Source of the DNA: Patescibacteria group bacterium
GTDB taxonomy: Bacteria; Patescibacteriota; Minisyncoccia; Phycocordibacterales; JBHPGB01
Length of the DNA stretch: 64,000 nucleotides
Assembly (NCBI GenBank): GCA_042571085.1
Contig: JBHPGB010000001.1
Location: forward strand, 3,190-67,189
Reading direction: 5' to 3'
In this document: positions 6,046 through 50,718 of the stretch, one piece after another
How the letters are laid out: each line of letters begins with the position of its first letter
Position numbering within the stretch: the first letter of the stretch is position 1
The notes under the pieces: generated by a model
Databases searched by the model: none
The model's input: only the letters and a program-made list of their open reading frames with translations
Told to the model about the DNA's origin: nothing
Program-made: the position numbers and the translations under genes

Positions 6046-6050
6046 TTGAA

Positions 6051-6162
6051 ATTTCCAAAATTGACGCGGAGCTTTGTTGGCTTCCTCGAAATAATACTCA
6101 CAGTACTCTTGTACAGCTCGTGTCATTTCTTGTTGCCGCCTCGCTCCACATTCAATTTGTGC
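6051..6162 (+). repeat. Copy 1 of conserved about 100-nt intergenic element (TCGAAATAATACTCACAGTAC...GTACAGCTC...GCCTCCTCG) in S10 leader position
   Basis: About 75-80% identity to copies at 9526-9627 and 18884-18996; flanking 7-nt stem covaries between copies. Confidence 0.7.
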
Positions 6163-6252: not shown

Positions 6253-6594
6253 ATGGCTACAAAAAAAACTACAAAAAAAGGAGATGAGACACCAAAATTG
6301 CGTATTCGCGTAGGTGCATATGAGCACAAAGTGCTTGATGCATCTGTAAAGCAGATCATTGATACTGCTATGCGCTTAGACGCACAAATTATTGGTCCAG
6401 TCCCTCTTCCTACAGAGAAAAAGAAATATACCGTCAACCGCTCTTCATTTGTCTACAAAGACGCGCGAGAGCAGTTTGAAATGAGGATTCATAAGCGATT
6501 GATTGATATTTTGAACCCTACTCCAAAGATTGTGGAGGCGTTGACTAACCTCAACCTCCCATCAGGAGTTAACGTGGATGTTAAGATGAGCTAA
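6253..6594 (+). CDS. rpsJ: Ribosomal protein S10
   Basis: 113 aa, canonical S10 sequence ([13 protein letters not shown]...). Confidence 0.95.
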
Positions 6595-6608: not shown

Positions 6609-6656
6609 CACACAAAACAAAAGCGTCGGCTTCGCCGACGCTTTTGTTTTGTGTGT
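6609..6656 (+). terminator. Very stable hairpin/terminator after rpsJ (22-bp perfect stem, UUCG tetraloop)
   Basis: CACACAAAACAAAAGCGTCGGC-ttcg-GCCGACGCTTTTGTTTTGTGTG. Confidence 0.7.
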
Positions 6657-6660
6657 AAAA

Positions 6661-6722
6661 ACTAATCGGCTCACTCGCAGTGAGTCGATTAATATGTTGA
6701 AGAATAAGGGTAAAAAAATCGC
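6661..6722 (+). repeat. Member of CGGCTCA-palindrome repeat family (variant copy)
   Basis: AATCGGCTCActcgcagTGAGtCGATTAATAtgTTGAAGAATAaGGGT; compare 34471-34532 and 36393-36454. Confidence 0.6.
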
Positions 6723-6795: not shown

Positions 6796-6867
6796 GGTGG
6801 ACATTAAACAAGCGAATGGCTTACGTGAACAGATACGAAGCCAGTACGCTGTCTTTATTTTTGTACT

Positions 6868-7479
6868 ATGAAAAAGTTTATCTTAGGAACAAAAGAAGAA
6901 ATGACACAAATTTTTACCGAAGACGGTAAAGTTATTCCTGCTACAGTAGTAAATGCTGGGCCGGTTAAAGTTACTCAGGTAAAAAGCACTGACGGAAAAG
7001 ACGGATACGAAGCAGTACAGGTTGGATTTGGTTCAAAGAAAGAAAAGAGTATAAATAAGGCCGAAAGAGGTCATATGGGAAATGATGATAATTTCAGCGA
7101 TTTAGTAGAGTTTCGTACTGAAGGGTCAGAACTTAAGAAAGGAGACGAAATCACAGCTGACATTTTTGAAGAAGGAGATGACGTACAAGTAAGCGGAATC
7201 AGTAAGGGTAAAGGTTTCCAAGGTGTTGTTAAGCGTCATGGATTTCACGGAGGACCACGAAGTCACGGTCAGAAGCACTCAGAGCGTGAGCCAGGATCAA
7301 TTGGTGCTACGGGACCGCAAAGAGTATTCAAAGGTAAACGAATGGGCGGCAGAATGGGATCAGACAGAGTTACTGTTAAAGGATTGAAGATTGTGGGAGT
7401 AGATAAAGAAAATAATAAGCTTTTGATATCAGGAGCTGTACCAGGAAAGCGTGGAACACTACTTGAAATTCGCGGATAA
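6868..7479 (+). CDS. rplC: Ribosomal protein L3
   Basis: 203 aa; L3 signature around GKGFQGVVKRHGF. Confidence 0.95.
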   Translation: MKKFILGTKEEMTQIFTEDGKVIPATVVNAGPVKVTQVKSTDGKDGYEAVQVGFGSKKEKSINKAERGHMGNDDNFSDLVEFRTEGSELKKGDEITADIFEEGDDVQVSGISKGKGFQGVVKRHGFHGGPRSHGQKHSEREPGSIGATGPQRVFKGKRMGGRMGSDRVTVKGLKIVGVDKENNKLLISGAVPGKRGTLLEIRG

Positions 7480-7504
7480 TAAATTTCAAAAAATATAAAA
7501 CATT

Positions 7505-8167
7505 ATGAATAGCAAAGTATACAACCAAACAGGAAAAGAAGCAGGCAAGATTGATTTGCCAGAAGCTGTTTTCGGTTTGCCTGAAAATATGGACTTGATT
7601 CATCAGGTTGTTATTTCTATGCAAAGTAATGCTCGAACAAATGTTGCACATGCTAAAGACAGAAGTGAAGTACGTGGTGGTGGTAAAAAGCCTTGGAAAC
7701 AAAAAGGTACAGGACGAGCACGACACGGATCAAGCCGCTCACCAATTTGGGTTGGTGGTGGTGTAACACACGGACCAACAAACGAGAGAAACTACACAAA
7801 GAAAATCAACAAGAAAATGAAAACAAAAGCTTTGTTTACAGCGCTTTCAGGAAAATTGAATGACAATGAAATTCTTTTTGTAGACTCACTTGATTTTACA
7901 GAAGCAAAAACAGCAAAAGCTAGCGAAATATTTAAGGCACTAGCTGGCATTAAAGGATATGAAGCGCTTGGAGAAAAGAAGCAAAACACAGCTCTTATCA
8001 CAACACTTTCAAAAGACGAAAATGTATACAAGAGTTTTGGTAATTTCGGAAACATTGCAATTGAAGAGGTGAGAAACTTGAATCCGGTAGATGTACTTAC
8101 ATACAAGTATTTGATAGTAGTTAATCCAGAAGAAAGTGTTAAATTTTTGGAAACTAAATTAGCATAA
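7505..8167 (+). CDS. rplD: Ribosomal protein L4
   Basis: 220 aa; RGGGKKPWKQKGTGRAR motif. Confidence 0.95.
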   Translation: MNSKVYNQTGKEAGKIDLPEAVFGLPENMDLIHQVVISMQSNARTNVAHAKDRSEVRGGGKKPWKQKGTGRARHGSSRSPIWVGGGVTHGPTNERNYTKKINKKMKTKALFTALSGKLNDNEILFVDSLDFTEAKTAKASEIFKALAGIKGYEALGEKKQNTALITTLSKDENVYKSFGNFGNIAIEEVRNLNPVDVLTYKYLIVVNPEESVKFLETKLA

Positions 8168-8175
8168 TTAAAATC

Positions 8176-8649
8176 ATGGCATTTTTTACAAGAAAAGTTG
8201 AAGATACAAAAGCTAAAGGCGCAAAAGGGCGCGAGGATGCTTTGGGCGCAAAGGTGCACAGTAAAGATTCAAAAGAATTCAAAAGTGGTAAAGAAGCTGA
8301 TGTTGTTGGAGCTGACAAAGTAAAAACTGCTCCAGCTAAAAAAGTGTCTGTGAAAGCGGTATCAACAAAAGTGACAGGAAATCCAAACACATTGCTTCGC
8401 CCACGTATTACTGAAAAAGCAACACTACATGCGGAGAATGGTGCATATGTATTTAATGTAAGCACAGCAGCCTCAAAGAGTGAGATCGCAAAAGAGGTTG
8501 AGCGTGTATACGGAGTAAAGCCAGAGAAAGTAAGAACATTACCTGTGCCGAAGAAAACAGTTATCCGTAGAAACAAGAAAGGGGTGAAAAGTGGCGGAAA
8601 GAAGGCGATAGTATATTTGAAAGAAGGAGATACTATAGAGATTATATAA
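8176..8649 (+). CDS. rplW: Ribosomal protein L23 with Lys-rich N-terminal extension
   Basis: C-terminal 95 aa match L23; N-terminal about 60 aa K/A-rich. Confidence 0.9.
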   Translation: MAFFTRKVEDTKAKGAKGREDALGAKVHSKDSKEFKSGKEADVVGADKVKTAPAKKVSVKAVSTKVTGNPNTLLRPRITEKATLHAENGAYVFNVSTAASKSEIAKEVERVYGVKPEKVRTLPVPKKTVIRRNKKGVKSGGKKAIVYLKEGDTIEII

Positions 8650-8682
8650 ATATACGAATAAAGAATTTGTAATTATTATTTT

Positions 8683-9525
8683 ATGAAAAGATATAAACCA
8701 ACAACACCATCACGAAGAAATATGAGCACGGTTACATACCGAGGTGTGTTGACTGCGTCTGAGCCTAAAAAATCTCTTACAAAAGGACGTAAGCGTGCTG
8801 TTGGTCGCAACAGTGCTGGACGTATTACAGTGCGCCACAAAGGAGGTGGACATAAGCGTTTATATCGAGAAATTGACTTTAAATACAACAAAATTGATAT
8901 CCCAGCTAAAGTGGAAACTATTGAATATGATCCAAACCGTTCAGGATTTATTGCTCTTGTTGTGTATGCAGATGGTGAGCGTCGTTATATACTTGCTCCA
9001 AGTTCACTTAAGGTTGGCGATAAGTTTGTAGTTTCAGAAAAAGCAGAAGTAAAAGTTGGAAACAGAATGCCACTTAAGAATATTCCGATAGGTACTTTTG
9101 TATACAATATCGAATTGAAGCCTGGTGCAGGTGCACGTATTGCACGATCAGCAGGATCATACGCTGAAGTAGTTGCAAACTCAGAAGGATACACAAACAT
9201 CAAAATGCCTTCAAGTGAAGTACGTAAAGTATTGGAATTAGCATGGGCTACAATCGGTGAAGTTTCAAACTCAGAATACAAATTACGTAATATTGGTAAA
9301 GCTGGACGTAGTCGTCACATGGGAATTCGTCCAACGGTTCGTGGTTCAGCCATGAACCCAGTAGATCACCCGTATGGTGGTGGTGAAGGTAAAGCAGGAC
9401 GAGGACGTCGTCGCGCAGTATCTAAGTGGGGTAAGCCGACTGGAAAAGGTCAGAAGACTCGTCGCGTAAAGAAATACTCAAACAAACTTATAGTATCTCG
9501 CCGAAAAGTTGGCAAGAAGAGATAA
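8683..9525 (+). CDS. rplB: Ribosomal protein L2
   Basis: 280 aa; RHKGGGHKRLYR and GGGEGKAGRG motifs. Confidence 0.96.
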   Translation: MKRYKPTTPSRRNMSTVTYRGVLTASEPKKSLTKGRKRAVGRNSAGRITVRHKGGGHKRLYREIDFKYNKIDIPAKVETIEYDPNRSGFIALVVYADGERRYILAPSSLKVGDKFVVSEKAEVKVGNRMPLKNIPIGTFVYNIELKPGAGARIARSAGSYAEVVANSEGYTNIKMPSSEVRKVLELAWATIGEVSNSEYKLRNIGKAGRSRHMGIRPTVRGSAMNPVDHPYGGGEGKAGRGRRRAVSKWGKPTGKGQKTRRVKKYSNKLIVSRRKVGKKR

Positions 9526-9627
9526 TTCCATTTTTGGCGCAGAACTTTGTCGACTGCTTCGAAATAATACTCACAGTACCACTCGTACAGCTCATATTAT
9601 TTCTCATTGCCTCCTCGTTCTGCATCC
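9526..9627 (+). repeat. Copy 2 of conserved r-protein-operon intergenic element
   Basis: TTCCAtttttGGCG...TCGAAATAATACTCACAGTACcactcGTACAGCTC...GCCTCCTCG; closing stem GCAGAAC/GTTCTGC. Confidence 0.7.
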
Positions 9628-9653
9628 AAAAATGAAATTATCTTGAACTAAAC

Positions 9654-9686
9654 AAAAAACGACCCGCACATGCGGGTCGTTTTTTG
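9654..9686. terminator. Bidirectional terminator between rplB (+) and K+ channel gene (-)
   Basis: AAAAAACGACCCGCACATGCGGGTCGTTTTTT. Confidence 0.7.
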
Positions 9687-9701
9687 TTTATTTTTTTAAC
9701 T

Positions 9702-10475
9702 TTATTCAAGTGAGAATTCGTTCTTTATTACATGGCCACAATGCTTGCAGTGCGAAGCGTCTAGTTCGTGTCTACGTAGCCCACAATCTGGGCATTCATA
9801 TTGAATACGTGGGCGACGAAAAATACTTTGTGCAAGTCTAATAAATAAAGTAACGCCGAAAATCATAATGATAATGGAAAGCATTTTACCTGCGGTTCCA
9901 ACGGCTATAATATCCCCAAAACCGGTCGTGGTGAGTGTTGTGATGGTGAAATAGAGAGCATCAAGGTGGTTACCTATATTTGCATTGATTGAGGATTGAG
10001 AAACAAATACGATTACTGTCATTACAAAAAGGAATACAAAGAAGTTTAAAATTCCAACGATTATATTTCTATTGCGCGCGATTGCACCATTTTCTTTCTC
10101 TAGATAATCAAGTGCGCGGTATGTTCTGAAGATACGCAATGTCCTTATTACTCGAAGGATTGCAAGATTGCCGACAAGTGCAGGCATCAGAAGTGACACT
10201 ATTACAATAAAATCAGTAATCGCTAGCAGGCTAAATGCATAATTAAGCTTTTTAGGTGCAAGCCATAATCTACCGATGTACTCAAAGGTAAATATTATTG
10301 CAAAGATGATTTCAACAGCATGTACCACCGAATGCTCAGGATATACGGCCTCAATTGCGAATAGGGAAAATAGTAAAATATCTATTAAAAACAACGTTTT
10401 ATTGAATATAACACTGGTGTGTTTCTTCCCATAAAAAAGTGTCCGCAATTTCCTTTTAAATTTCCTGATAGTCAT
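9702..10475 (-). CDS. Voltage-gated K+ channel-like protein (S4 sensor + TTGFGD filter) with C-terminal CxxC-CxxC zinc ribbon
   Basis: LRVIRTLRIFRTYR (Arg every third residue), selectivity filter TTTGFGDI, C-terminal CPDCG...CKHCG. Confidence 0.75.
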   Translation of the reverse strand: MTIRKFKRKLRTLFYGKKHTSVIFNKTLFLIDILLFSLFAIEAVYPEHSVVHAVEIIFAIIFTFEYIGRLWLAPKKLNYAFSLLAITDFIVIVSLLMPALVGNLAILRVIRTLRIFRTYRALDYLEKENGAIARNRNIIVGILNFFVFLFVMTVIVFVSQSSINANIGNHLDALYFTITTLTTTGFGDIIAVGTAGKMLSIIIMIFGVTLFIRLAQSIFRRPRIQYECPDCGLRRHELDASHCKHCGHVIKNEFSLE

Positions 10476-17493: not shown

Positions 17494-17501
17494 CTTTGAA
17501 A

Positions 17502-17530
17502 ATACGGCTCATTTGGGCTGAGCCGTATTT
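17502..17530. repeat. CGGCTCA-family perfect hairpin (ATACGGCTCA-tttggg-cTGAGCCGTAT); second related hairpin at 17557-17581
   Basis: Perfect 11-bp stem; shares CGGCTCA/TGAGCCG arms with repeats at 6661, 34471, 36393. Confidence 0.6.
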
Positions 17531-17758
17531 TACATTCAAAAACAAGGGTTTTTGGGCAACGGCTCAGCAGGCTGAGCTGTTTAAAATATCATAGTTGCAT
17601 TTTGAGACGCTTTTTGATAGTATAGCTCTACACTTGAATTTCATCAGATCCGCCATTCTCCTCTCGTATTCCTTGTTTCGGCTCGGAATACGGAAGAATA
17701 ATGGTGTGATATCTAATGAAAATTTGAAAATAAACGTTTTTTAGCGTTTTTATTATAT

Positions 17759-18348: not shown

Positions 18349-18882
18349 ATGAGTCGTATAGGAAAACAAACAATAGTAATACCAGAAAAGACAGAAGTCG
18401 TTCAAAACGATGGTGTTATTACTGTGAAAGGACCGCTTGGTGAACTTAAAAAAGAGCTTAGAGATAATATTGAGATTAAGATTGAAGGGAATGAAGTTAC
18501 GCTTGCTCCAAAAGATGAGTCAAAATCTACAACAGCATTATGGGGAACATACGCATCACATATTAAAAACATGGTTGACGGTGTTAACAAACTGTATGAG
18601 AAAAAGCTTATCGTTGAAGGTGTTGGATTCAAGGTTGATTTGAAAGGTAATGAAATTGAAATGGCGCTTGGATTTTCACATCCTGTGAAAGTAGCTATTC
18701 CAGAAGGAATAACAGTAGCCGTTGAAAAAAACACAATCAGCATTTCAAGTATTGATAAGGAGGCGTTAGGACAATTTGCCGCAAAAGTAAGAGCTTTGAA
18801 GAAACCAGAGCCTTACAAAGGAAAAGGAATTAGATACGAAGATGAGGTTGTCAGACGTAAGCAAGGTAAGAAAGCAGTCTAA
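18349..18882 (+). CDS. rplF: Ribosomal protein L6
   Basis: 177 aa; two L6 alpha/beta repeats. Confidence 0.95.
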   Translation: MSRIGKQTIVIPEKTEVVQNDGVITVKGPLGELKKELRDNIEIKIEGNEVTLAPKDESKSTTALWGTYASHIKNMVDGVNKLYEKKLIVEGVGFKVDLKGNEIEMALGFSHPVKVAIPEGITVAVEKNTISISSIDKEALGQFAAKVRALKKPEPYKGKGIRYEDEVVRRKQGKKAV

Positions 18883-18883
18883 A

Positions 18884-18996
18884 ACTTCCAAAATTGACGA
18901 ATTTCTTTGTCAGCTTCGGAAAAAATATTTTCACAGTACTACATGTACAGCTTCAAATATTTTTTCCTAGCCTCCTCGAAATTCATTCAATTTATG
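18884..18996 (+). repeat. Copy 3 of conserved r-protein-operon intergenic element
   Basis: ACTTCCAAAATTGACGaatTTCTTTGTcaGCTTCGGAAAAAATAtTTTCACAGTACtacatGTACAGCTtc...AGCCTCCTCGaaattCATTCAATTTaTG; closing stem GAATTTC/GAAATTC. Confidence 0.7.
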
Positions 18997-28785: not shown

Positions 28786-28894
28786 AATACTTTAAAAAAT
28801 CCCGATTTCGGGATAATGGTGATATATTACAGGAGTTATGCAAATAAGTCAAATTCATGACAGGGTCATATAATATAGACTTTTTGACTATAAT

Positions 28895-29353
28895 ATGCGA
28901 TTATTTGAGCAGTTTGATCCCTTAAGCAGCCAAGGAGATATCATGGATATATTCACTCTAATTATTTTGTGGGTAGTAATAGGCATTCTTGTGGGTAAAT
29001 ATAGATGGGAACTTGCCTATGGTGTGGATTTTAAAAATTTGAAATTAGGTGATCGTTTTTTGCTTTCGATAAATTGGCCAGTCACGTATGTTGTGTGCGG
29101 CCCGGATATTTCGTGGTTTATCAGACATCCTAAAAAGCCATCACTTGCTTTTGATTGTTTTTCTGATGAAGATGCATTTATCAAAACATTTGAGACTAAA
29201 TATGGATATTGTGCAGCCATGATGTTTTGGGGGTTTCCTTGTTTCATATTTTCAACTACTGTCTTTGTGCTTGGTTGCATCTTAAGGATTATGTATGAAA
29301 TGTTAGTACCTGTTTATAAAATATGCATGTGGTGCATTAAATGCATCATATAG
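28895..29353 (+). CDS. Hypothetical membrane protein (Cys-rich C-terminus)
   Basis: 152 aa; 3-4 TM; ...CMWCIKCII. Confidence 0.45.
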   Translation: MRLFEQFDPLSSQGDIMDIFTLIILWVVIGILVGKYRWELAYGVDFKNLKLGDRFLLSINWPVTYVVCGPDISWFIRHPKKPSLAFDCFSDEDAFIKTFETKYGYCAAMMFWGFPCFIFSTTVFVLGCILRIMYEMLVPVYKICMWCIKCII

Positions 29354-29409
29354 TAATAATGATGAATATGTTGTATTGTTAATACTGCTCGGGATGAGCA
29401 GTATTTTTT

Positions 29410-30246
29410 ATGGAAAAAGTCAAATTAAATCAGTATATAGCTCAGGCCACTGGCATGTCCCGTAGGGAGGCCAGTGAGGAGATAAAAGCTGGGAAAATCA
29501 AGATAAATGGGCGCAAAGCTCTTTTTTGGGAGGAAATTGACCCTAAAGAGGACAGTATTCTATACCAAGGCAAGAAAATCACCTTACCAGAGCATACTAC
29601 TACAATTATCCTAAATAAGCCTGTTGGGTATGTAACAACCCGAGATGATGAATTTGGAAGGGATATCGTGATGGATTTGTTGCCAGAAAATTTACAATAC
29701 CTAAAACCGGTTGGCCGACTTGATGCGGATAGTGAAGGTCTGCTTATCCTCACTGATGACGGAGATAAGATATATGAATGGACACATCCAAAATTTGAAC
29801 ACGAAAAAGAATACGTCTTAACGCTCAAAAAACCAATTACCGAAGAATTGCTGCAAAAATTTATAAAGGGTGTGAAGCTACAGGAGGGAATTGCCGTGGC
29901 TGACTATGTAGAGCCTATCTGGAAATCTCATTCCGGCTCTATGTCTCCAAATTTTGCTCGGAAACTCGTAAAAAATTCTTCAAAATATCCCGATATTCCT
30001 CAGAAATTTTTTACTTCGTCCCGAACCAAATTTGAAAACATATCCTCGAAAGCAGATTCCCAGACAGGCTCTGAAAAGATCAGTACAAAAGAATTAAACA
30101 TAGTGATCCACCAAGGATGGAAGAGGCAACTGCGCCGCATGGCAGAAAAATGCGGGAATGAAGTGACAAAACTAAAGCGTATTCGTATGGGAGACATTAC
30201 TCTAGATGACTTGCCAAGTGGTGAGTGGAAGAAGGTTGATTTGTAA
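29410..30246 (+). CDS. S4-domain pseudouridine synthase (RsuA/RluB family) with C-terminal extension
   Basis: S4 RNA-binding N-terminus; GRLDADSEGLLILTDDG catalytic motif. Confidence 0.85.
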   Translation: MEKVKLNQYIAQATGMSRREASEEIKAGKIKINGRKALFWEEIDPKEDSILYQGKKITLPEHTTTIILNKPVGYVTTRDDEFGRDIVMDLLPENLQYLKPVGRLDADSEGLLILTDDGDKIYEWTHPKFEHEKEYVLTLKKPITEELLQKFIKGVKLQEGIAVADYVEPIWKSHSGSMSPNFARKLVKNSSKYPDIPQKFFTSSRTKFENISSKADSQTGSEKISTKELNIVIHQGWKRQLRRMAEKCGNEVTKLKRIRMGDITLDDLPSGEWKKVDL

Positions 30247-30323
30247 TGTCTCGTTGATATAAATTATTTTTGGTGTATAAATATCTTAACAAATCATTTT
30301 TATAATAATTTAATAACACCTCT

Positions 30324-33300
30324 ATGAAGAATAAAATATTTAGCAAGGGTCTCTATTTCTTAATTTTTACGGCAATTTTTGCTGTTTTGCCTTTATCTGC
30401 TTCAGCTGCAACATATGTGAGCGGCACAATTTCCACCGATACCGTTTGGACTGCTTCAAGTAGTCCGTATGTGGTGCAGGGTATTGTTGCTTTGGATCAA
30501 TACAGAACTCTTACAATAGAACCTGGTGTGGTTGTTAAATTTGATACTGGCGCATTGTTGCATGCACACGGTACACTTAACGCTCAAGGTACCACAGAAG
30601 ACAAAATATATTTCACCTCAATCAAAGACGACAGTATCGGTGGCGACACAAATGGAGATGGAGATGCTTCAGTGGCAGCGCCTGGTGATTGGGGTTTTTT
30701 AAATATTTCTACCTATCTGCCACGCAGTCCCCTTTCTTCCATTAAAAATATAGTGGTTCGATATGGTGGAGGTGTTGATTATAATACTACCGGTGCAGCG
30801 GTTATAATTTCTGATTCCGGGCTAGAGTCTATAGATAATTCTGAATTTGCATACAATAAAGTTGGACTTTACAACGAGTATGACAGTGTTGAGATAACTA
30901 ATAGTAATTTTCATCACAATGAAATCGGTGTGTATTCAGCTCCAAGACATCGTGGTTGGGGTGCGACAAGAATACTTACTTTTAATAACAACACAATTTC
31001 TGACAACTCATTATACGGGGTAGATATAGGATATTACAAGCCAACTTACGGTGTTGTGTCCAGTAGTTTTGATTTTAATAATAATATTTTCACAAATAAT
31101 CCAACAGCTTTGCGTGTGTATAGTAATACTATATTATCTCATTCAAACAATTCTGCTTCTGGTGGTGATAAAAATGGAATATTAATTGGTGATGGAATAC
31201 ATCCAAATACAAATTGGAATGCCGATAATATTCCATATATTATTGATGGTAATATTTATTATCGCGGTGGTACTCTTACCATTGATCCTGGAACTGTAAT
31301 TAAATTTACTTCTCCCGAATCTATTTTAGATATACATGCTCGTGTTTTTCTTCATATAAATGGAACTCAAGATGAACCAGTTTATTTTACTTCTATCAAA
31401 GACGATAGTGTCGGTGGCGACACAAATGGAGATGGGTCTGCTTCAGTACCAGCAGCAGGTGACTGGGGATATGTTTCTATAGGAGAGGGATCTTCTAATA
31501 TAGGTTTGGATATAAATTATATGAAAGTGCGCTATGGAGGTGGCTCTTTTTTCCGAAATAATATTTACCCTGCTCTAGCCCTGTCTTTTAATTGGTATCA
31601 ATATACTTTAGTTAAAGATTATTACTTGGAAAACATTGAAGTTTCAAATAGTAAATCTGGTCTCTATGTGCATTCTGTTAAACACAGATTTCATCTTTCA
31701 AACAGTAGTATCCACGATAATGAAGACTATGGGCTGTATGCATATACATATTTTAGATACGGACCTAACGGAGAAGTAGATGCACAAAATAACTGGTGGG
31801 GAGATGCTTCAGGGCCATATCAAGTGGATCAAAATCCTTCTGGTCTTGGAAATGAAATTTCTGGTGATGTCCCAACAAATGCATCATTTGATCCATGGCT
31901 TACAGAGGATCCGCTTGTTTCAACACCAACATGCTGTTCTAGTGTGGTGTTTTTGCCAGGTTTGGAAGCAAGTCGTTTGTACCGACCTGGGTTAACGCTA
32001 TTTTCAGAAGACCAATTATGGTATCCGAATACCACAAACGATATACAAAACCTCTCACTCTCTACAACCACTGGTGAGAGTATTGATCCAAATGTTTACA
32101 CGCGTGATGTGCTTGATGAGGTTGCTGGGACAGTAAATATATACAAAGGCTTTTTGTCTGATATGAATAAGCTTGTAGATTCTGGAACAATAGCGCAATT
32201 TGAACCTATGCCATACGATTGGCGTAAAGATCAGAAAGATGTTGCAATGCAACCTGTTGTGATTGGAAGAAATGGAGAAAGTTATTCAATGGTACAAAAG
32301 ATTGAAGAATTGGCGTCGACATCACAAACAGGAAAAGTTACGATCATAACACACAGTAACGGAGGGTTAGTTGCAAAAGAGCTTATTGAATTACTTCGTA
32401 AGGCTGGAAAGAGTTCTTTGGTGGAACAGCTTATTATGGTAGCAGCACCAGAATTAGGAACACCAAAAGCGGTTTTGTTAATGTTGCATGGAGAAAATCT
32501 TACTGGGCCACCTGATTATGTAAACACTCGTGAACTCGGAGAAAATATGAAAAGTGCGTACACCCTCCTGCCTTCCAGTGCGTATTTTGATCCGAGTAGA
32601 ACAGGATTATTACCTAGTCAAAATATTATAGAATTTAGTACTACAACTTCCGCAACGCAATATTTCCGCGATTTGTATGGAGAGAGTATTTCAGATTACG
32701 ATACATTACGAAAGTTCTTGCTTGGGGACAATGGATTGCGTATCGAGCCTATAGCGAGTGCAGTCAGTGAGCCAAATGTTCTGAAAGAAAATTTCTTGGA
32801 GAATGCTGAAACTCGCCACAGTTTTCAAGATACATGGACTCCTCCTGAAGATATTAAAGTAACAGAGATTGTTGGATGGGGCCTTGATACTGTGAATGGA
32901 ATTCGTTATGATGCAACACAAAAAACCATATGTAATGAAGACAAGTCTGTATGCACCAAACAAGATATTATTGATCCGCAACCATTAGTTACTGTAAATG
33001 GAGACGGAACGGTTGTGCATTTGTCGGCAGAGGCGACAGAAGGAGCGGATAGGTATTGGGTTGATATAAGCGAGTATAATGCAGGACCAAAAGTTAATCG
33101 TGATCATAAAAATATTCTAGAAGTTAAACCCTTAATTGCTCTTTTGTCTACTCTTGTTAAAAATGATGAGGTTACAATTCTGCCTGATGACTATATAAAA
33201 TCAGATCAGCCACAACTTTCTGATGCAGAGTCACGATTGCGCATCGGTGTTCATTCACCTGTAACGCTACATCTTTATGACAACTATGGTCGTCACACAG

Positions 33301-33959
33301 GACCAGCTGTAAATCCAGATCCAGACTCAGATCTTCCATTTGTAGAAGAGCAGATTCCAAATACTTACTATTGGAATATTGGAGAAGGTCAGTATGCAGG
33401 TGTTGGTGTAGACACAATAACTACAATAAAATTAACAGGGAAAAAACTCGGCACATTTACTGTTGATATTGATGAGGTTGTTGGTGATGAGTCTGTATCC
33501 ACAAACATATTTGCTAATATACCAACTACTGAAAATACTATCGCACATATTGCAGTGGGTGAAACAGTACATACACCAGTACTTCTGGTTGATATAGATG
33601 GTGATGATAATAATGATGTAGAAATCAACCCTAATGAAGAAGTGTCTGACACAGACTATCTTGTACTTTTGCGCGGCGTCATAACAACAATGGATTTGTC
33701 AGAGAAAAAAGAGGAAAAGCTTATTAAAGCAATAGATCGTATTCTTAAGTCTGTTGAGAAAGAAGAAAAGTGTGTAAACAAAAAAGAAGAAAATGCACAA
33801 AAGAAGTGTGATATACATTTTGATCATAAGTTTGGAAAAAGGTTTGACTACTTTGTAAAAATAATTGAAAAATTTGAAGAACGAGAAATATTGTCTGATA
33901 TCGAAGCGAGAGAACTAATTGATGTTATTGGTAAAATTGAGGGTGAGATGGTAATATAA
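30324..33959 (+). CDS. Giant secreted multidomain protein: duplicated N-terminal module, right-handed beta-helix (NosD-like) repeats, central LCAT/PGAP1-like alpha/beta-hydrolase (lipase/acyltransferase) domain, coiled-coil C-terminal tail
   Basis: Signal peptide; repeat YFTSIKDDS(I/V)GGDTNGDG.ASV.A.GDWG twice; CCSSVVFLPGLEASRLYRP and ITHSNGG lipase-like nucleophile; C-terminus ELIDVIGKIEGEMVI. Confidence 0.65.
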   Translation: MKNKIFSKGLYFLIFTAIFAVLPLSASAATYVSGTISTDTVWTASSSPYVVQGIVALDQYRTLTIEPGVVVKFDTGALLHAHGTLNAQGTTEDKIYFTSIKDDSIGGDTNGDGDASVAAPGDWGFLNISTYLPRSPLSSIKNIVVRYGGGVDYNTTGAAVIISDSGLESIDNSEFAYNKVGLYNEYDSVEITNSNFHHNEIGVYSAPRHRGWGATRILTFNNNTISDNSLYGVDIGYYKPTYGVVSSSFDFNNNIFTNNPTALRVYSNTILSHSNNSASGGDKNGILIGDGIHPNTNWNADNIPYIIDGNIYYRGGTLTIDPGTVIKFTSPESILDIHARVFLHINGTQDEPVYFTSIKDDSVGGDTNGDGSASVPAAGDWGYVSIGEGSSNIGLDINYMKVRYGGGSFFRNNIYPALALSFNWYQYTLVKDYYLENIEVSNSKSGLYVHSVKHRFHLSNSSIHDNEDYGLYAYTYFRYGPNGEVDAQNNWWGDASGPYQVDQNPSGLGNEISGDVPTNASFDPWLTEDPLVSTPTCCSSVVFLPGLEASRLYRPGLTLFSEDQLWYPNTTNDIQNLSLSTTTGESIDPNVYTRDVLDEVAGTVNIYKGFLSDMNKLVDSGTIAQFEPMPYDWRKDQKDVAMQPVVIGRNGESYSMVQKIEELASTSQTGKVTIITHSNGGLVAKELIELLRKAGKSSLVEQLIMVAAPELGTPKAVLLMLHGENLTGPPDYVNTRELGENMKSAYTLLPSSAYFDPSRTGLLPSQNIIEFSTTTSATQYFRDLYGESISDYDTLRKFLLGDNGLRIEPIASAVSEPNVLKENFLENAETRHSFQDTWTPPEDIKVTEIVGWGLDTVNGIRYDATQKTICNEDKSVCTKQDIIDPQPLVTVNGDGTVVHLSAEATEGADRYWVDISEYNAGPKVNRDHKNILEVKPLIALLSTLVKNDEVTILPDDYIKSDQPQLSDAESRLRIGVHSPVTLHLYDNYGRHTGPAVNPDPDSDLPFVEEQIPNTYYWNIGEGQYAGVGVDTITTIKLTGKKLGTFTVDIDEVVGDESVSTNIFANIPTTENTIAHIAVGETVHTPVLLVDIDGDDNNDVEINPNEEVSDTDYLVLLRGVITTMDLSEKKEEKLIKAIDRILKSVEKEEKCVNKKEENAQKKCDIHFDHKFGKRFDYFVKIIEKFEEREILSDIEARELIDVIGKIEGEMVI

Positions 33960-33963
33960 ATGT

Positions 33964-34410
33964 ATGTTGAATCATAAAAAAGTCGCAATATTTTTGTTTA
34001 CAGCAACCGTCATTATAAATTATATTGTCTATTTAATCTGGGAACCTCCATACGATAGTTTGTGCGGTGGTGGAATTCATGAAAATAGAGATTGTGTTAA
34101 TTTAATAAACAACTTAAGCGAACCTGTTTTTTGGTCTTTTCTAGCACTTCTTCCAGTTACTATAGCTCTTTTCTTCCTACGTCGTGAAGTATTTGTGGCT
34201 TGGGTAAAGTTTGCAGCTATTGGATTTCCTATAATGCTTGCAGGACTTCTCTATACATTCAACATGCCACAATCTACAGGATCATTTATGGGAGGTCCAT
34301 CAGAATCAGAAATTGCATCTGTTGTTCTTCCAGGCCTCTTCCTCATTATCTCCCTCTTAATCATCGCAATAAAATCTTGGAAGTTGAGGAAAATGAATGG
34401 TGCTGAATAA
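33964..34410 (+). CDS. Small 4-TM membrane protein, paralog A (C-terminal 27 aa identical to paralog B)
   Basis: ...GLFLIISLLIIAIKSWKLRKMNGAE; followed by the same terminator as paralog B. Confidence 0.6.
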   Translation: MLNHKKVAIFLFTATVIINYIVYLIWEPPYDSLCGGGIHENRDCVNLINNLSEPVFWSFLALLPVTIALFFLRREVFVAWVKFAAIGFPIMLAGLLYTFNMPQSTGSFMGGPSESEIASVVLPGLFLIISLLIIAIKSWKLRKMNGAE

Positions 34411-34470
34411 ATATAAAATACAACAAAAAACCGCCCTCAAGCGGTTTTTTTATACCCACAGGGCACAGGT

Positions 34471-34532
34471 ATAAATTAATCGGCTCAACCGGGTTGAGCC
34501 GATTAATAGTTTGAAGAATATGGGTTTTTTGA
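34471..34532. repeat. 62-bp repeat containing perfect palindrome ATTAATCGGCTCAACCGGGTTGAGCCGATTAAT
   Basis: Near-identical copy at 36393-36454; variant at 6661-6722. Confidence 0.75.
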
Positions 34533-34553
34533 CACTCAAATATCACAGGCCAA

Positions 34554-34796
34554 ATGGATATTCAACACGGACTTAAAACAGATATACAAGAAAAATTAAA
34601 AATTGCTCAAAAGGAATTCAGTAAAGAAAAACAAGATAATGCTATTAAGAAGCTTGATGATACAATAAGAAAACTAGAGGATGAAGTTCATCAAAATATT
34701 AAGCGTACTGAAAAAGAGAAAAAGATAAAAATATCAACAGAAGATGCACAAAAATTGATTGATATTATTGTGAAAATAATAGATGGAATGGTATAA
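34554..34796 (+). CDS. Small coiled-coil protein sharing C-terminal motif with the giant secreted protein
   Basis: 80 aa; C-terminus KLIDIIVKIIDGMV vs giant protein ELIDVIGKIEGEMVI. Confidence 0.55.
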   Translation: MDIQHGLKTDIQEKLKIAQKEFSKEKQDNAIKKLDDTIRKLEDEVHQNIKRTEKEKKIKISTEDAQKLIDIIVKIIDGMV

Positions 34797-34804
34797 TAAA
34801 AGTA

Positions 34805-35212
34805 ATGTATAAAAGAAATATTATAAAATACCTTGAGATATCTTTTGTTGGAATTATTCTTAGTCTAATATTGTTAAATGCACCAGAAATTGGTTTTTGT
34901 GTTAATTGTTACGGTTTGGCAGATGTTGGGCAGCCTTTAAGTTTGTTGTTTTTGTCACTCGTTGTTATTTTTACGTTTTTGTTTTTCGCAAAGAAGATGG
35001 TTTTCACAACATGGAAAAAGTTTGCAATTCCATACCTCATATTTTCCACGATCATTCTTCTAATACCATCTGGTGGCATGGGTGGATTTATGGGGGGAGG
35101 GCCTGACAATGAATTTTTTGCAATAATACTTTCTGGTCTCTTCCTCATAATCTCCCTCCTAATCATCGCGATAAAATCTTGGAAGTTGAGGAAAATGAAT
35201 GGTGCTGAATAA
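34805..35212 (+). CDS. Small 4-TM membrane protein, paralog B
   Basis: Same architecture and identical C-terminal 27 aa plus identical terminator (AAAAAACCGCCCTCAAGCGGTTTTTT) as 33964..34410. Confidence 0.6.
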   Translation: MYKRNIIKYLEISFVGIILSLILLNAPEIGFCVNCYGLADVGQPLSLLFLSLVVIFTFLFFAKKMVFTTWKKFAIPYLIFSTIILLIPSGGMGGFMGGGPDNEFFAIILSGLFLIISLLIIAIKSWKLRKMNGAE

Positions 35213-35265
35213 ATACAAAACTCAACAACAAAAAACCGCCCTCAAGCGGTTTTTTGTTGTTGGAA

Positions 35266-35301
35266 ATATCGTTCTAAATTAAAGAAATGGGTGAGGTGTT
35301 G
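35266..35301 (+). promoter_or_regulatory. 36-bp duplicated upstream module TATCGTTCTAAATTAAAGAAATGGGTGAGGTGTTGA (copy 1), ends in -35-like TTGAC
   Basis: Identical copy at 35795-35830; each followed about 70-165 bp later by a small ORF. Confidence 0.55.
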
Positions 35302-35373
35302 ACGAAATAGTGTATATGTGATAATGTTTACTTCAGAAATTTCCCATTCAATAAAACTCTATAGGAGTTTCAG

Positions 35374-35703
35374 ATGAAAAAAACTGATTTGGAAAAATTG
35401 AGAAGTGGGCCTAGTAGCAGAGTCCGTGAAAGTGCTGGTACGAATGCTTTTGTAGTAACTGAAAAACTTGGGCTACACGAAGCAACCGTTCAAAGAACCT
35501 TAAGAATAATGAACCCGCTTGAATGGTTGGCCAACGGCAAACCATTCGACAAGATTGGTGATTTAAGGAGTGGTGACACTCTTAAACATGTAACTTTCGG
35601 TAGTACTTTTGTAGTAGAAGAAGTTGGTGAAATTTCTGCTTTCTCTGTAGAAACAAAAACTATCAATCTCAACAATTTTGATCAATGGGATATTATTTCT
35701 TAA
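35374..35703 (+). CDS. Hypothetical small protein (cassette 1)
   Basis: 109 aa; own promoter module and terminator (GGCCGTTCGCTTGAACGGCC plus T-run). Confidence 0.5.
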   Translation: MKKTDLEKLRSGPSSRVRESAGTNAFVVTEKLGLHEATVQRTLRIMNPLEWLANGKPFDKIGDLRSGDTLKHVTFGSTFVVEEVGEISAFSVETKTINLNNFDQWDIIS

Positions 35704-35794
35704 TTTAAGTACTTGTTGATAGAGGCCGTTCGCTTGAACGGCCTTTTTTATATTTACACAACCAGACGGAGGAATGTTACGTTTGTGTGGTAAG

Positions 35795-35830
35795 TATCGT
35801 TCTAAATTAAAGAAATGGGTGAGGTGTTGA
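35795..35830 (+). promoter_or_regulatory. 36-bp duplicated upstream module (copy 2)
   Basis: Exact repeat of 35266-35301. Confidence 0.55.
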
Positions 35831-35995
35831 TATAAATTGCTTTTAGGTGTATAAACAATATTAGTAAGTATATTTGCTAATGAGGATTGTGACGGAAAGA
35901 TAGGGTCACAAGCAAGATTTTGTGGTGGGTCCATTGATGTCAAAAAAGATGTTGATTCTTGGCGGTGTCAATTACAGTATAATAGGAGATGTGAA

Positions 35996-36322
35996 ATGAG
36001 CTACAAGGCAAGAGCTACTACCGACGGAAAAGGTATGCGTCCGATATGCGGAGGATTATTTCGTACGGATCTTAAAGCTCAATCTTTAGGGCAGGCTGGA
36101 GTAGACATTTGGTCGATTGATATTACTCTTTACTCAACCATATTGGTTAAGTTACTCAATCAAGATAAATTTAATCTGTTGGCCAGTCGGCTAATAAATG
36201 TTGAGGGGTACCACCCAAATACTGAAGTGATGGCTGGTCATAAACCAAGTCTTACTGCCATTGAAATTGGCGATAAAAAATATCGTGCGCGTGGGAATAC
36301 TATTTATGAAAAAAAAGTATAA
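35996..36322 (+). CDS. Hypothetical small protein (cassette 2)
   Basis: 108 aa; no similarity to cassette 1 protein. Confidence 0.5.
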   Translation: MSYKARATTDGKGMRPICGGLFRTDLKAQSLGQAGVDIWSIDITLYSTILVKLLNQDKFNLLASRLINVEGYHPNTEVMAGHKPSLTAIEIGDKKYRARGNTIYEKKV

Positions 36323-36392
36323 AGGCTCACGTTGCAAATGGCCCTGCTTGAGTTTAAGTAGGGCTATTCTTTTTATAAACTTGCTTTTTTAT

Positions 36393-36454
36393 ATAAATTA
36401 ATCGGCTCAACCGGGTTGAGCCGATTAATAGATTCGAGAATATGGGTTTTTTGA
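36393..36454. repeat. 62-bp palindrome-containing repeat, second copy
   Basis: ATAAATTAATCGGCTCAACCGGGTTGAGCCGATTAATAGaTTcGAgAATATGGGTTTTTTGA. Confidence 0.75.
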
Positions 36455-36458
36455 ATAT

Positions 36459-37727
36459 TTATTTTGACTTTTCTGCCATATCAGTACCAGCTACCCAGCC
36501 GGTGGTCCAGCAGAGTTGTAGAGAGAAGCCTCCTGACGGACGATTGATGTCTAATATATCACCGAGTAGATATAGGTTTGGATATAATTTTGAGGTCATG
36601 TTTTTAAAATTAACCTCTTCAAGGATGATGCCACCGTCTGTAACGACGGCTTTTTTGTGTCCGAGTGTACCTGTGATTTCAAATGTTAGATTTTTAAGTT
36701 TTTTCACAAGAGTTTTTCGCTCTTCTTTTGTGATGGAGTTGATTTCTAAATCGTCCATTTTAACATCTGGTAGATTTAATATTTCTCTCGCCAAGTTCTC
36801 CGGAAGTAATTCAGGTAGTACGTTTCTCAACTTTTTATTTTTGTTTTGTTCAAAAAGTTTTAATACTCTCTTATCTAAAACATTTTCTTCTGTATCGGGG
36901 AAAAGATCAATAGATGCTTCCACTGCACCTTTCTTTAACAGCTCCTTCACTTCGTATGCAGAATTTAAAATGAGCGGTCCTGAAACACCAAAGTGTGTGA
37001 AAAGAATTTTACCAGTCTTTTTGAGTGCAGATTTACCCTTTTGCATAAAGCGGATAGTCATGAATGAAAGATCCAGCCCAGATAATCTATGTACCCACTC
37101 ATCAGATGTAGTAAGTGGTACTACGTTTGGATTTGGCTCTTTGATTGTGTGCCCTAGGTTTTTTAGGAAGTTGAAACCGTCACCACTTGATCCTGTTTGA
37201 GGTGCAGCAACACCACCCGTTGCGATTGCAAAATTTTCTGCAGAAAATTCAGCTCCTTTTTTGGTGGTGATTGATACAATCTTGTCTCCATCTTTATTTA
37301 TAGATGCCACGCGGTTGTTTGTGATTATTTCCACATCATTTCTGCGCATGTATTGTTCAAGTACTAAGAATACATCAGACGCCTTTTGTGATTTTGGAAA
37401 TACTCTGTTGCGGGCCTCTGTTACTAAAGGTAGTTTAAGATTTTCAAAGAATGTAAAAGTATCTTTCGCAGAGAATTTTGAAAAGGGGGAGTATAGAAAA
37501 TCTTTTGCACTTGGGAAATTATCTAAGAATTTACGCACATCAAATTCGGCGTTGGTGATATTGCACCTGCCGCCGCCTGTTATTTTAAGCTTTTCCCCAA
37601 GCTTTTTATTACGTTCAATAAGTAGTACTTTTGCACCCAGCTCTGCAGCGCGTCCTGCCATCATCATTCCGGATGGCCCGCCACCTATTACTATTAGATC
37701 GTATTGTCCTTTTCTGTTATTTGCCAT
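36459..37727 (-). CDS. HI0933-like FAD-dependent flavoprotein (aminoacetone oxidase family)
   Basis: YDLIVIGGGPSGMMMAGRAAELGAKVLLIERN dinucleotide-binding motif; 422 aa. Confidence 0.8.
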   Translation of the reverse strand: MANNRKGQYDLIVIGGGPSGMMMAGRAAELGAKVLLIERNKKLGEKLKITGGGRCNITNAEFDVRKFLDNFPSAKDFLYSPFSKFSAKDTFTFFENLKLPLVTEARNRVFPKSQKASDVFLVLEQYMRRNDVEIITNNRVASINKDGDKIVSITTKKGAEFSAENFAIATGGVAAPQTGSSGDGFNFLKNLGHTIKEPNPNVVPLTTSDEWVHRLSGLDLSFMTIRFMQKGKSALKKTGKILFTHFGVSGPLILNSAYEVKELLKKGAVEASIDLFPDTEENVLDKRVLKLFEQNKNKKLRNVLPELLPENLAREILNLPDVKMDDLEINSITKEERKTLVKKLKNLTFEITGTLGHKKAVVTDGGIILEEVNFKNMTSKLYPNLYLLGDILDINRPSGGFSLQLCWTTGWVAGTDMAEKSK

Positions 37728-37836: not shown

Positions 37837-38865
<1,029 letters not shown>

Positions 38866-47074: not shown

Positions 47075-47160
47075 TTCGATTCTCCCCATCTCTCACAAAC
47101 GCAAACGCCGCCAAAGCAATGCTTTGGCGGCGGCGTTTTGTGGAGATGGGGAGAATCGAA
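47075..47160. repeat. About 85-bp near-perfect palindrome built from inverted copies of the tmRNA T-arm/acceptor (TTCGATTCTCCCCATCTC) around an 11-bp GC hairpin
   Basis: Left arm 47075-47117, loop AAT, right arm 47121-47160; inner GCCGCCAAAGC/GCTTTGGCGGC. Confidence 0.65.
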
Positions 47161-47685
47161 CTCCCGTGCAAATAATGCTTCTGAATGAGTCTACAAAGGT
47201 TAGTACACTTTGGTTTGTTTAGAAGAGTGAGCTAAAAAGTGAACAAAATTTCTCACACCTCGATTCTCTATGTTTCGGTATTGTATCGAGAAATAATACT
47301 CTTTCCGATTAAATACTTCTTAAGAAAACCTCAGAATTTTAGACGAGACAAAGTAAAAAATATAAAGAATATCCTTAGATATTTTGAATATTTTTTGCAA
47401 AGTCGTAGTCAAAATTATGGTGTTTTCAAGGAGTAGTTAATCGGAAAGGGTATAAAACAAGACCTAGTCTGAAAAATATTACACTCAGATTTCACCTATC
47501 AAACTTTAGTGAACTGAACGCCGGCTTAGGCTAAAGCGTAAGCTGGAGAAGCAAAGTATGGGCTAACCATTGCTTTTGCTTTTTGTGACAAGTTTGCACT
47601 TATCGTGTGTAGCCTTTTGAATAGTTACTACAGCTATCCTTCGCACATGCAAAAGGGAAATCATCTGTCGATACCGATCACCCCC
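47141..47685 (-). ncRNA. ssrA: tmRNA (ssrA) candidate, unusually long (about 545 nt) with about 200-nt AT-rich insertion before the T-arm
   Basis: 5' GGGGGUGAUCGGUAUCGACAG (tmRNA 5' consensus), acceptor pairing GGGGGUG/CAUCUCC with G3-U wobble, tag ORF ending ...ASPAYALA-UAA, 3' GGGAG-UUCGAUU-CUCCC T-arm; adjacent to smpB. Confidence 0.6.
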
Positions 47686-50627: not shown

Positions 50628-50700
50628 GCGCGTATAGCTCAGTTGGTAGAGCGCAGAGCTTATACCTCTGTGGTCCTAGGTTCAAGTCCTAGTGCGCGCA
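50628..50700 (+). tRNA. tRNA with anticodon UAU (tRNA-Ile decoding AUA by anticodon; 73 nt, no encoded CCA)
   Basis: Cloverleaf: acceptor GCGCGTA/TGCGCGC, D-arm GCTC-AGTTGGTA-GAGC, anticodon stem CAGAG/CTCTG loop CTTATAC, T-arm CTAGG-TTCAAGT-CCTAG. Confidence 0.85.
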
Positions 50701-50718
50701 CTCATCATTTCATATAGA

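Follow-up and report, generated by a model that had tools for sequence, protein, structure and literature searches.

A probable recombination-scarred 3' flank of a polymorphic secreted-lipase locus in a Patescibacteria genome

Background

The 3' flank of a gene for a giant secreted protein in a Patescibacteria (Candidate Phyla Radiation, CPR) metagenome-assembled genome (MAG) contains several small genes, some of them similar to one another, interspersed with repeated sequences, and it raises the question of how this arrangement came about and which function it serves. The flank occupies positions 33,960 to 36,458 of a window of 64,000 nucleotides (contig JBHPGB010000001.1, assembly GCA_042571085.1), the window being the whole stretch of DNA that was analysed; positions given without a locus name refer to it. 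The 148-aa protein encoded at 33964-34410 (P0001) is identical to the NCBI protein ACFL0K_00235, although a look-up by exact sequence gave no record. Ribosomal-protein genes, secY, adk, map, infC, rpmI, rplT and pseudouridine-synthase genes are found upstream of the region, and the base composition of the region is not atypical for the window. In a sequence-only reading, made without database searches, the region was proposed to be a repeat-bounded export/immunity or cargo-cassette system.

Bacteria of the CPR grow in attachment to other microbes and are generally unable to synthesise membrane lipids themselves. To our knowledge, little has been described of the ways in which they attack or tap the membranes of their hosts.

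In this work, the locus was compared with related loci from other assemblies (L011-L018/19, L020-L026, L034 and L035), of which L017 and L011 are two contigs of one sister MAG (GCA_042577165.1). We propose that the locus encodes a polymorphic secreted lipase and that its 3' flank, the region studied here, has been scarred by recombination, a reading to which we give a probability of roughly 0.72. At the level of gene sequence, the comparison shows that the giant gene is built from a constant N-terminal half and an exchangeable C-terminal half, the latter inherited as a unit with a downstream gene for a small protein with four transmembrane segments (4-TM protein).

Results

Replacement of the C-terminal half of the giant gene

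The giant gene (30324-33959) encodes a signal peptide, a right-handed beta-helix, an LCAT-type lipase domain (PF02450, E 3e-16 in Pfam), a beta-rich region and a helical tail, and the protein ends in ELIDVIGKIEGEMVI. The LCAT domain is present in all alleles examined, and the catalytic Ser/Asp/His motifs HSNGG (Ser677), GDGTV and NRDHKNILE are intact in both the window allele and the L017 allele, which are referred to below as alleles A and B. No cell-wall anchor was recognisable in the giant protein by the Pfam scan. The giant gene and the open reading frames (ORFs) that follow it are divided as follows.

30324-31981, plus strand: constant N-terminal part of the giant gene (approximately aa 1-552), with a Sec signal peptide and a Pfam Beta_helix match; 98% DNA and 100% amino acid identity to L017
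31982-33959, plus strand: variable C-terminal module A of the giant gene, encoding the LCAT-type alpha/beta-hydrolase, the beta-rich region and helical tail A; no DNA similarity to L017
33964-34410, plus strand: 4TM-1 (148 aa), predicted cognate partner of module A, beginning 4 nt past the stop codon of the giant gene
34554-34796, plus strand: orphan tail B, an 80-aa ORF for a truncated FIMAH-like helical tail, identical to the last 80 aa of the L017 giant protein
34805-35212, plus strand: 4TM-2, predicted partner of the displaced allele B (orphan partner gene), one aa different from P0011, the partner of the full-length B allele in L017

Contig L017 is syntenic with the window across infC, the pseudouridine-synthase gene and the giant gene, and its infC and pseudouridine-synthase genes are 95-97% identical to those of the window. 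The two giant proteins share 100% amino acid identity over the 542 aa that precede the FLPGLEAS motif, and positions 30073-31981 match L017 830-2738 with 98% DNA identity. Their C-terminal halves (approximately 660 aa, comprising the LCAT domain, the beta-rich region and the tail) have 37% amino acid identity and no DNA similarity. The breakpoint coincides with the conserved CCS(S/N)VVFLPGLEASRLY motif at the start of the LCAT domain, and this left junction is located in unique sequence, outside any repeat. Downstream, similarity to L017 resumes with 99.7% DNA identity (34551-35225 against L017 4429-5103); therefore, positions 31982-34550 of the window, which hold module A, 4TM-1, its terminator and a hairpin module, replace L017 2739-4428. 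The exchanged unit is thus larger than the group of small genes singled out in the sequence-only reading, as it starts at 31982, inside the giant gene.

Searches with the giant protein outside these loci gave little: a scan of genome contigs found only distant beta-helix relatives, and a metagenome-contig scan with the constant N-terminal half found no close relatives. In two of the compared assemblies the giant gene is broken, namely in L015, where it is frameshifted within the K/E/D-rich tail-coding repeat (9650-9763), and in L016, where it is split into several ORFs (6801-9995). Slippage-prone low-complexity DNA or assembly errors could account for both.

An orphan fragment of the displaced allele

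The 80-aa ORF, whose product ends in KLIDIIVKIIDGMV, starts at an internal Met codon of its parent gene, at a point inside the FIMAH profile. Homology to allele B begins at approximately 34540-34551, and none to the constant region was found. The product is also similar to the tail of the giant protein of L018 (43% identity, E 3e-17). It matches the Pfam FIMAH family (PF22888) with 20.0 bits over profile positions 16-68 of 81, i.e. below the gathering cut-off of 24.8. Since homologous full-length tails pass this cut-off (31.0 bits for L012 and 29.2 bits for L018), the 80-aa protein is a truncated relative of FIMAH rather than a full member. Judged by their near-identity to the end of the L017 locus, the 80-aa ORF and 4TM-2 are an orphan remnant of the displaced C-terminal allele B.

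The similar ends of the giant and the 80-aa protein had been noticed in the sequence-only reading and proposed to be a shared targeting or interaction motif. Both peptides are as described there, and the common motif is explained by the homology of the 80-aa ORF and the giant tail. A relaxed form of the motif occurs at only two sites in all six frames of the window, the ends of these two proteins. Its recurrence in other proteins had been suggested as a check; among the relatives, it was indeed found, confined to the C-termini of the giants and placed 5-7 residues ahead of the stop. An independent targeting signal was ruled out, as the 80-aa ORF represents the displaced 3' end of another giant allele.

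A family of 4-TM proteins paired with the giant gene

The products of 4TM-1 and 4TM-2 are paralogues with 46% identity over 107 aa. The AlphaFold2 (AF2) model of 4TM-1 contains four helices (predicted local distance difference test score, pLDDT, 73.8), and a Foldseek search with this model against the PDB gave no match at E <= 0.001. None of the 4-TM proteins has a family match in Pfam, NCBIfam, PHROG or PADLOC. With a profile of 14 related sequences, 1,248 clusters at 50% identity were retrieved (E <= 1e-3), nearly all with proteins of 130-155 aa. The conserved parts of the family are TM4, the KSWKLR segment that follows it and the RREVF loop; TM1 and the two short outward loops (approximately 25 and 17 aa) are variable.

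In nearly every locus retrieved, the 4-TM gene begins 4-9 nt downstream of a large ORF for an LCAT-type giant. This adjacency was observed in L012-L018, L019, L020-L026, L034 and L035, with different flanking genes, and it extends to distant members of the 4-TM family (E 1e-21 and 1e-15). Wider gaps were found in the frameshifted L015 (23 nt) and in L023, where 137 nt precede a truncated 97-aa call. Across lineages, the identity of the 4-TM partner follows the identity of the C-terminal half of the giant and not that of the N-terminal half.

The 4-TM genes themselves are mosaic. The first part of 4TM-1 in the window (33964-34120) and its counterpart in L011 (313-470) share no more than about 25% identity in TM1 and loop 1, and the two proteins are identical from approximately residue 52 on. 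Another family member, P0003, has a window-like N-terminal half joined to a different C-terminal half. One of the best sigma-70-like matches of the region (34768-34797; TTGTGA, 18 nt, TATAAT, with an upstream TG; 10 of 12 positions) is located inside the final part of the tail-coding sequence, at a distance of 8 nt from the 4TM-2 start codon, and it is a candidate for an internal promoter that this gene could have of its own.

The same junction in a diverged context

The second contig of the sister MAG, L011, begins inside the tail of a giant gene and has the order tail A, a 4TM-1 variant (4TM-1'), a promoter-like module, a 149-aa ORF (ORF149), a hairpin module, the same hairpin/orphan junction as in the window and a diverged orphan. 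The first 30 residues of this orphan are as in the window and are followed by a His/Asp/Lys-rich insert. Downstream of the junction the two sequences have 94.6% identity, after which L011 has a different insert and a different 4TM gene; this further 4TM gene carries the common 3' end and is followed by unrelated small ORFs and a different flank. The junction is present in L011 with a diverged orphan, so it is not an assembly artefact, and it is real and older than both genomes.

The cassette with the promoter-like module follows 4TM-1 in L011 and 4TM-2 in the window, and the ORF that it carries differs between the two. The comparison of strains for cassette turnover, as proposed in the sequence-only reading, thus bore out that the locus varies, with the module occupying a different slot in front of a different ORF in the sister MAG. 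The small ORFs of L011 have no match in Pfam, NCBIfam, PHROG or PADLOC. A comparable arrangement was found in a second lineage (L020-L022, from three samples), where the giant gene is followed by a 4TM gene, a gene for a 119-aa membrane protein, a 47-aa tail fragment and a second 4TM gene.

Homogenised gene ends and dispersed repeats

Four kinds of repeated sequence were delineated in and around the region, none of them expected by chance: the common 3' ends of the 4-TM genes, their terminators, promoter-like modules and hairpin modules. Their positions, apart from those of the coding 3' ends, are given below.

34425-34450, strand not assigned: terminator hairpin of 4TM-1, common to 4TM-2, part of the homogenised 3' block 34327-34450
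35223-35262, strand not assigned: terminator hairpin of 4TM-2, with a core identical to the 4TM-1 terminator
35258-35302, plus strand: promoter-like module, copy 1, with TTGAC at its 3' end and TGTGATAAT downstream
35786-35867, plus strand: promoter-like module, copy 2 (TTGATA, 17 nt, TATAAA), 94% identical to L011 796-882, where it precedes the 149-aa ORF
34470-34532, plus strand: hairpin module, copy 1, a 16+1+16 palindrome followed by a AAGAATATGGGT(T)n box, approximately 20 nt from the orphan junction (fold -24.2 kcal/mol, z -5.7)
36392-36454, plus strand: hairpin module, copy 2, between ORF108 and a convergent HI0933-like gene (36459-37727, minus strand)
6656-6718, plus strand: diverged hairpin copy past the terminator of a gene ending at 6594 (78.6 bits)
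17494-17556, plus strand: diverged hairpin copy with compensatory stem changes, past the terminator of a gene ending at 17439 (64.2 bits)

The last 25 aa of the two 4-TM proteins are identical. The claim of the sequence-only reading that this holds for the last 27 aa needs a small correction, as 26 of the 27 agree (with one P/S difference); the identical terminators and the gene conversion-like character of the ends are confirmed. At the DNA level, the 3' ends of the genes form a 104-nt block with 90% identity, in which the last 14 codons are identical in nucleotides, and the 31-nt terminator is identical as well. In the TM4 segment, the two window paralogues match at 54 of 60 nt, compared with 43-49 of 60 nt for other lineages whose peptide is nearly the same (16-18 of 20 aa identical). 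This difference, together with the identity that runs into the noncoding terminator, indicates homogenisation at the DNA level besides purifying selection.

The promoter-like module comprises 36 identical nt at 35267 and 35795 and 45 nt with 93% identity; no such repeat is expected in shuffled sequences. As had been described, identical 36-bp copies precede two unrelated ORFs that have terminators of their own; the label of a promoter, by comparison, was not sustained by a strict consensus scan, which both copies fail.

The hairpin repeat at the locus is 63 nt long with 95% identity (3 mismatches) and an identical palindromic core of 33 nt. It had been seen as a pair of identical 62-bp palindromes that delimit the region; the repeat is there, with near-identical rather than identical copies, and its role as a dedicated boundary falls away, since two further copies are located near ribosomal-protein operons. 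These copies, at 6656 and 17494, lie between the terminator of a housekeeping gene and the next promoter region. In total, there are four copies in the window and one in L011, with compensatory changes in the stems and RNA folding z-scores of -4.2 to -6.7. A covariance model built from these five copies recovered no others, neither in the window nor in the related loci searched. No copy stands between ORF109 and ORF108, and Rfam gave no match within the region at its gathering thresholds. The repeats most plausibly serve as substrates of homologous recombination and remain as its footprints, rather than being specific sites.

Two strain-specific ORFs

Two ORFs lie behind the promoter-like modules.

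35374-35703, plus strand: ORF109, putative strain-specific ORFan with an AGGAG ribosome-binding site, a terminator-like hairpin at 35721-35746 and a codon score of 0.36
35996-36322, plus strand: ORF108, putative strain-specific ORFan with an AGGAG ribosome-binding site, a terminator-like hairpin at 36337-36368 and a codon score of 0.31

Both codon scores fall in the range of known genes of the window (0.13-0.72). Among 5.8e9 proteins, each of the two products matched only itself, and no similarity between them was detectable. ORF109 has no match in Pfam, PHROG, NCBIfam or PADLOC, ORF108 has only a sub-threshold family match, and sequence searches of the PDB gave chance-level hits for both. A single-sequence AF2 model of ORF109 was unusable (pLDDT 39). 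Taken by their coding features, ORF109 and ORF108 look like real, strain-specific genes.

Other features of the window

A second structured repeat, approximately 110 nt long with 71-80% identity and the palindromic core CACAGTAC..GTACAGC, is located at 6040-6160, 9513-9630 and 18873-18990, where it directly follows tuf, rplB and rplF; it has the appearance of another intergenic element dispersed within ribosomal-protein operons. Two stretches of the window are additional to the syntenic L017: 550 bp inserted between infC and the pseudouridine-synthase gene (28856-29407), with a Cys- and TM-rich ORF of 152 aa whose coding score is weak (0.13), and about 160 extra nt in the 3' part of the synthase gene (29912-30073). 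The ilvC gene for ketol-acid reductoisomerase (37837-38859, minus strand) forms a 1-kb block with a GC content of 0.49, compared with approximately 0.38 in the rest of the window, and therefore may have been acquired recently by horizontal transfer. A tRNA-Ile gene with a TAT anticodon is located at 50628-50701. A transfer-messenger RNA (tmRNA) gene at 47138-47685 (minus strand) was recognised with 50.2 bits against an Rfam threshold of 47 and was missed by ARAGORN. It contains a hairpin of approximately 160 nt (47296-47453), one arm of which is 85% identical to a long hairpin upstream of an AI-2E transporter gene (L011 3084-3239), and which could be an element similar to miniature inverted-repeat transposable elements (MITE-like).

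Discussion

A proposed course of events

The differences between the window and L017 would be accounted for by the following events. An incoming unit, corresponding to 31982-34550 (module A, 4TM-1, terminator and hairpin module), would have landed inside a resident giant gene of the B type. The left crossover would have occurred in the conserved N-terminal half, at the FLPGLEASRLY motif, and the right side would represent an illegitimate join. Most of allele B would thereby have been lost, and its last 80 codons together with the partner gene 4TM-2 would have been left as an orphan. The common 3' ends, the terminators and the promoter-like and hairpin modules may be both footprints of and substrates for homologous recombination or gene conversion, and the same recombination would shift small strain-specific genes (ORF109 and ORF108 in the window, ORF149 in the sister MAG) between slots. 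Less firmly, the lipase half may act extracellularly on the membranes of the host bacterium or of competing strains. The 4-TM protein would then be its cognate membrane partner, most likely one that shields the membrane of the producer in an immunity-like manner, with specificity possibly provided by the variable extracellular loops and a common core by the TM4/KSWKLR segment.

Several observations weigh against this reading. Both the toxicity of the lipase and the protection conferred by the 4-TM protein are things that we infer. The two alleles share the LCAT fold and are not unrelated toxin domains. Cytoplasm-facing motifs as conserved as RREVF and KSWKLR are unexpected in a pure immunity protein. 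Tail A of the window agrees with that of L011 at approximately 90%, while the 4TM-1 proteins of the two have no more than about 25% identity in TM1 and loop 1; the tail therefore does not co-vary with this loop. The modules in front of ORF109 and ORF108 fail the promoter scan. The comparison included a single close relative, L017 and L011 being parts of one MAG, and we infer the direction and number of events from it. Finally, the orphan, reduced to 80 codons and lacking any stretch homologous to the constant region, is not reactivable by a simple crossover, in contrast to orphans of the Rhs and contact-dependent inhibition (CDI) systems.

Alternative explanations

The 4-TM protein might instead be a docking, anchoring or maturation partner, which holds or activates the lipase at the cell surface or receives its lipid products for a lipid-auxotrophic CPR cell; the exchange of alleles would then be a matter of host-range or antigenic variation. 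Such a role would agree with the strict coupling of the two genes at 4-9 nt, with the conservation of the cytoplasmic and TM4 motifs while the extracellular loops vary, with the same enzyme and an intact catalytic triad in both alleles, and with a giant protein in which the Pfam scan recognised no cell-wall anchor. We regard it as possible but rather unlikely: loops of approximately 25 and 17 aa offer little surface for docking a protein of 1,200 aa, an orphan partner kept without its enzyme is better understood as retained protection, and no structural analogue of the 4-TM model was found in the PDB. Another alternative is neutral decay. A second giant/4TM pair, tandem or acquired, would have been mostly deleted, the 80-aa ORF, 4TM-2 and the repeats would be non-functional debris, ORF109 and ORF108 would be unrelated accessory genes, and only the conserved lipase/4TM pair would be a system. 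The 80-aa ORF does start in the middle of a domain, with a weak ribosome-binding site and behind a strong hairpin; ORF109 and ORF108 have no relatives, and giants are frameshifted or fragmented in other assemblies (L015 and L016). Debris, however, would hardly be expected to remain intact and 99.7% identical to the full-length allele of the sister MAG, as the orphan and 4TM-2 have done, to recur as a tail fragment with a 4TM gene in a second lineage, or to have homogenised noncoding 3' ends, and ORF109 and ORF108 resemble genes in their codon usage and come with ribosome-binding sites and terminators. We therefore consider decay an unlikely explanation.

Two further possibilities concern the repeats. 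In a cargo-cassette system, the 62-bp palindromes would be site-specific recombination sites of an integron- or shufflon-like kind, in keeping with the two near-identical hairpin modules that flank a 1.9-kb segment and with the identical 5' module before different ORFs in different slots of two genomes. This is very improbable, given that diverged hairpin copies with compensatory changes are located by ribosomal-protein operons and that each cassette has its own promoter-like module and terminator, unlike integron cassettes. The hairpin does not bound individual cassettes either, because it is absent between ORF109 and ORF108. The neighbouring proteins scanned in the interval from 24 to 44 kb (10 of its ORFs, plus those included in the Pfam scan) yielded no recombinase, integrase or transposase; the ORFs in between, among them the ribosomal-protein and translation-factor genes, were read only. 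The idea that the contig is a chimera of two co-occurring strains, joined at the repeats, derives some substance from the source being a MAG and from contigs of the sister MAG that break at these very repeats (L017 ends 13 nt past the 4TM gene and L011 begins inside the tail). It is nevertheless the most remote explanation considered here, as the hairpin/orphan junction was recovered in the independently assembled L011 with diverged sequence downstream and the left junction is located in unique sequence.

Comparison with known systems

Recombinational exchange of a locus for a polymorphic secreted lipase, the reading preferred here, has its closest analogue in the orphan modules of Rhs and CDI loci, in which a main gene with constant N-terminal and variable C-terminal parts and a small cognate gene are followed by a displaced C-terminal fragment with its own cognate gene. 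In Salmonella Rhs loci, a sequence found as an orphan in one strain forms the C-terminal end of the main gene of a different strain (PMC3967940). In the same manner, the 80-aa ORF and 4TM-2 of the window correspond to the end of the L017 giant and P0011, and the breakpoint falls at a conserved motif, here FLPGLEASRLY and in Rhs and CDI proteins DPxGL or VENN. The CPR locus differs in that the protein has a Sec signal peptide and is associated neither with type VI or type V secretion systems (T6SS, T5SS) nor with RHS or filamentous haemagglutinin repeats. Its variable part is approximately 660 aa long and always of the LCAT type, its partner is a 4-TM membrane protein with a putative role in immunity, and its orphan includes no constant-region sequence through which it could be fused again to a main gene.

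In polymorphic toxin systems in general, the C-terminal module is replaced by recombination and the trafficking part is kept, Sec export is one of the routes, and lipase-like alpha/beta-hydrolase toxins occur (Zhang et al. 2012, PMC3482391). Between the window and L017, the presentation part is likewise retained (100% over 542 aa) and the C-terminal half replaced (37%). The LCAT-type module, with its intact Ser/Asp/His motifs, would be a candidate toxin, and the small gene adjacent in nearly all loci retrieved, mostly at 4-9 nt, whose identity follows that of the C-terminus, a candidate immunity gene. Unlike in these systems, the C-terminal modules are not diverse folds, all alleles examined being LCAT, and the extreme C-terminus is a helical FIMAH-like tail and not an enzyme. 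LCAT (PF02450) is not among the families named in PMC3482391. Our literature search retrieved no paper joining LCAT and the Candidate Phyla Radiation; searches on Patescibacteria lipases, surface proteins or polymorphic toxins found nothing relevant, and a search for FIMAH gave papers on fimAH only.

Small proteins that protect the producer are encoded beside membrane attackers in the Tle/Tli pairs of T6SS, in the TslA/TilA pair of the type VII secretion system (T7SS) and in pore-forming colicins, which have small immunity proteins with 3-4 TM segments. The 4-TM protein differs from all of these in having no Pfam, NCBIfam or PADLOC match and no fold match in the PDB; Tli proteins are periplasmic or lipoproteins, and we know of none with four TM segments. 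A small membrane-associated gene is also located directly downstream of a secreted lipase in the LipA-Lif operon, where Lif combines a single TM helix with a large helical domain in the periplasm. For the 4-TM protein, the identity of a Lif-type foldase was ruled out by its four TM helices and its loops of approximately 25 and 17 aa.

Integron cassettes are promoterless ORFs, each followed by an attC site, beside the integrase gene intI. They were ruled out as a model for the region by the promoter-like module and terminator of each ORF, by the lack of the hairpin between the ORFs and by the lack of an integrase among the proteins scanned. The hairpin modules rather resemble repetitive extragenic palindromic (REP)-like elements in being short, strongly folding, intergenic, placed after terminators and present in several diverged copies with compensatory changes. 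They differ from them in having only four copies in 64 kb, and no REP-associated tyrosine transposase (RAYT) was seen in the window, which represents 64 kb of the genome.

Conclusions

Of the two systems that the sequence-only reading had proposed for the region, the immunity-like logic is plausible, and the cargo-cassette system has to be given up in view of the dispersed hairpin and the lack of a recombinase among the proteins scanned. On the reading preferred here, the locus follows a known polymorphic logic in a modified form and is not a new kind of cassette system. More tentatively, and with the odds somewhat against the proposal as a whole, it may represent a widespread two-gene polymorphic effector/immunity system of the CPR, in which a Sec-exported beta-helix/LCAT lipase and a 4-TM self-protection protein are exchanged by recombination, leaving orphan partners behind, and which would attack the membranes of hosts or competitors and possibly harvest lipids that CPR bacteria are unable to make. 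An LCAT-type secreted lipase is paired with a small 4-TM protein across many CPR lineages, and the swapping of the enzyme half and its partner between near-identical strains, with displaced partners kept, is a signature of conflict-driven diversification. The locus thus defines a large unannotated family of membrane proteins and provides a concrete candidate for an effector of host interaction or strain competition together with its protection factor.

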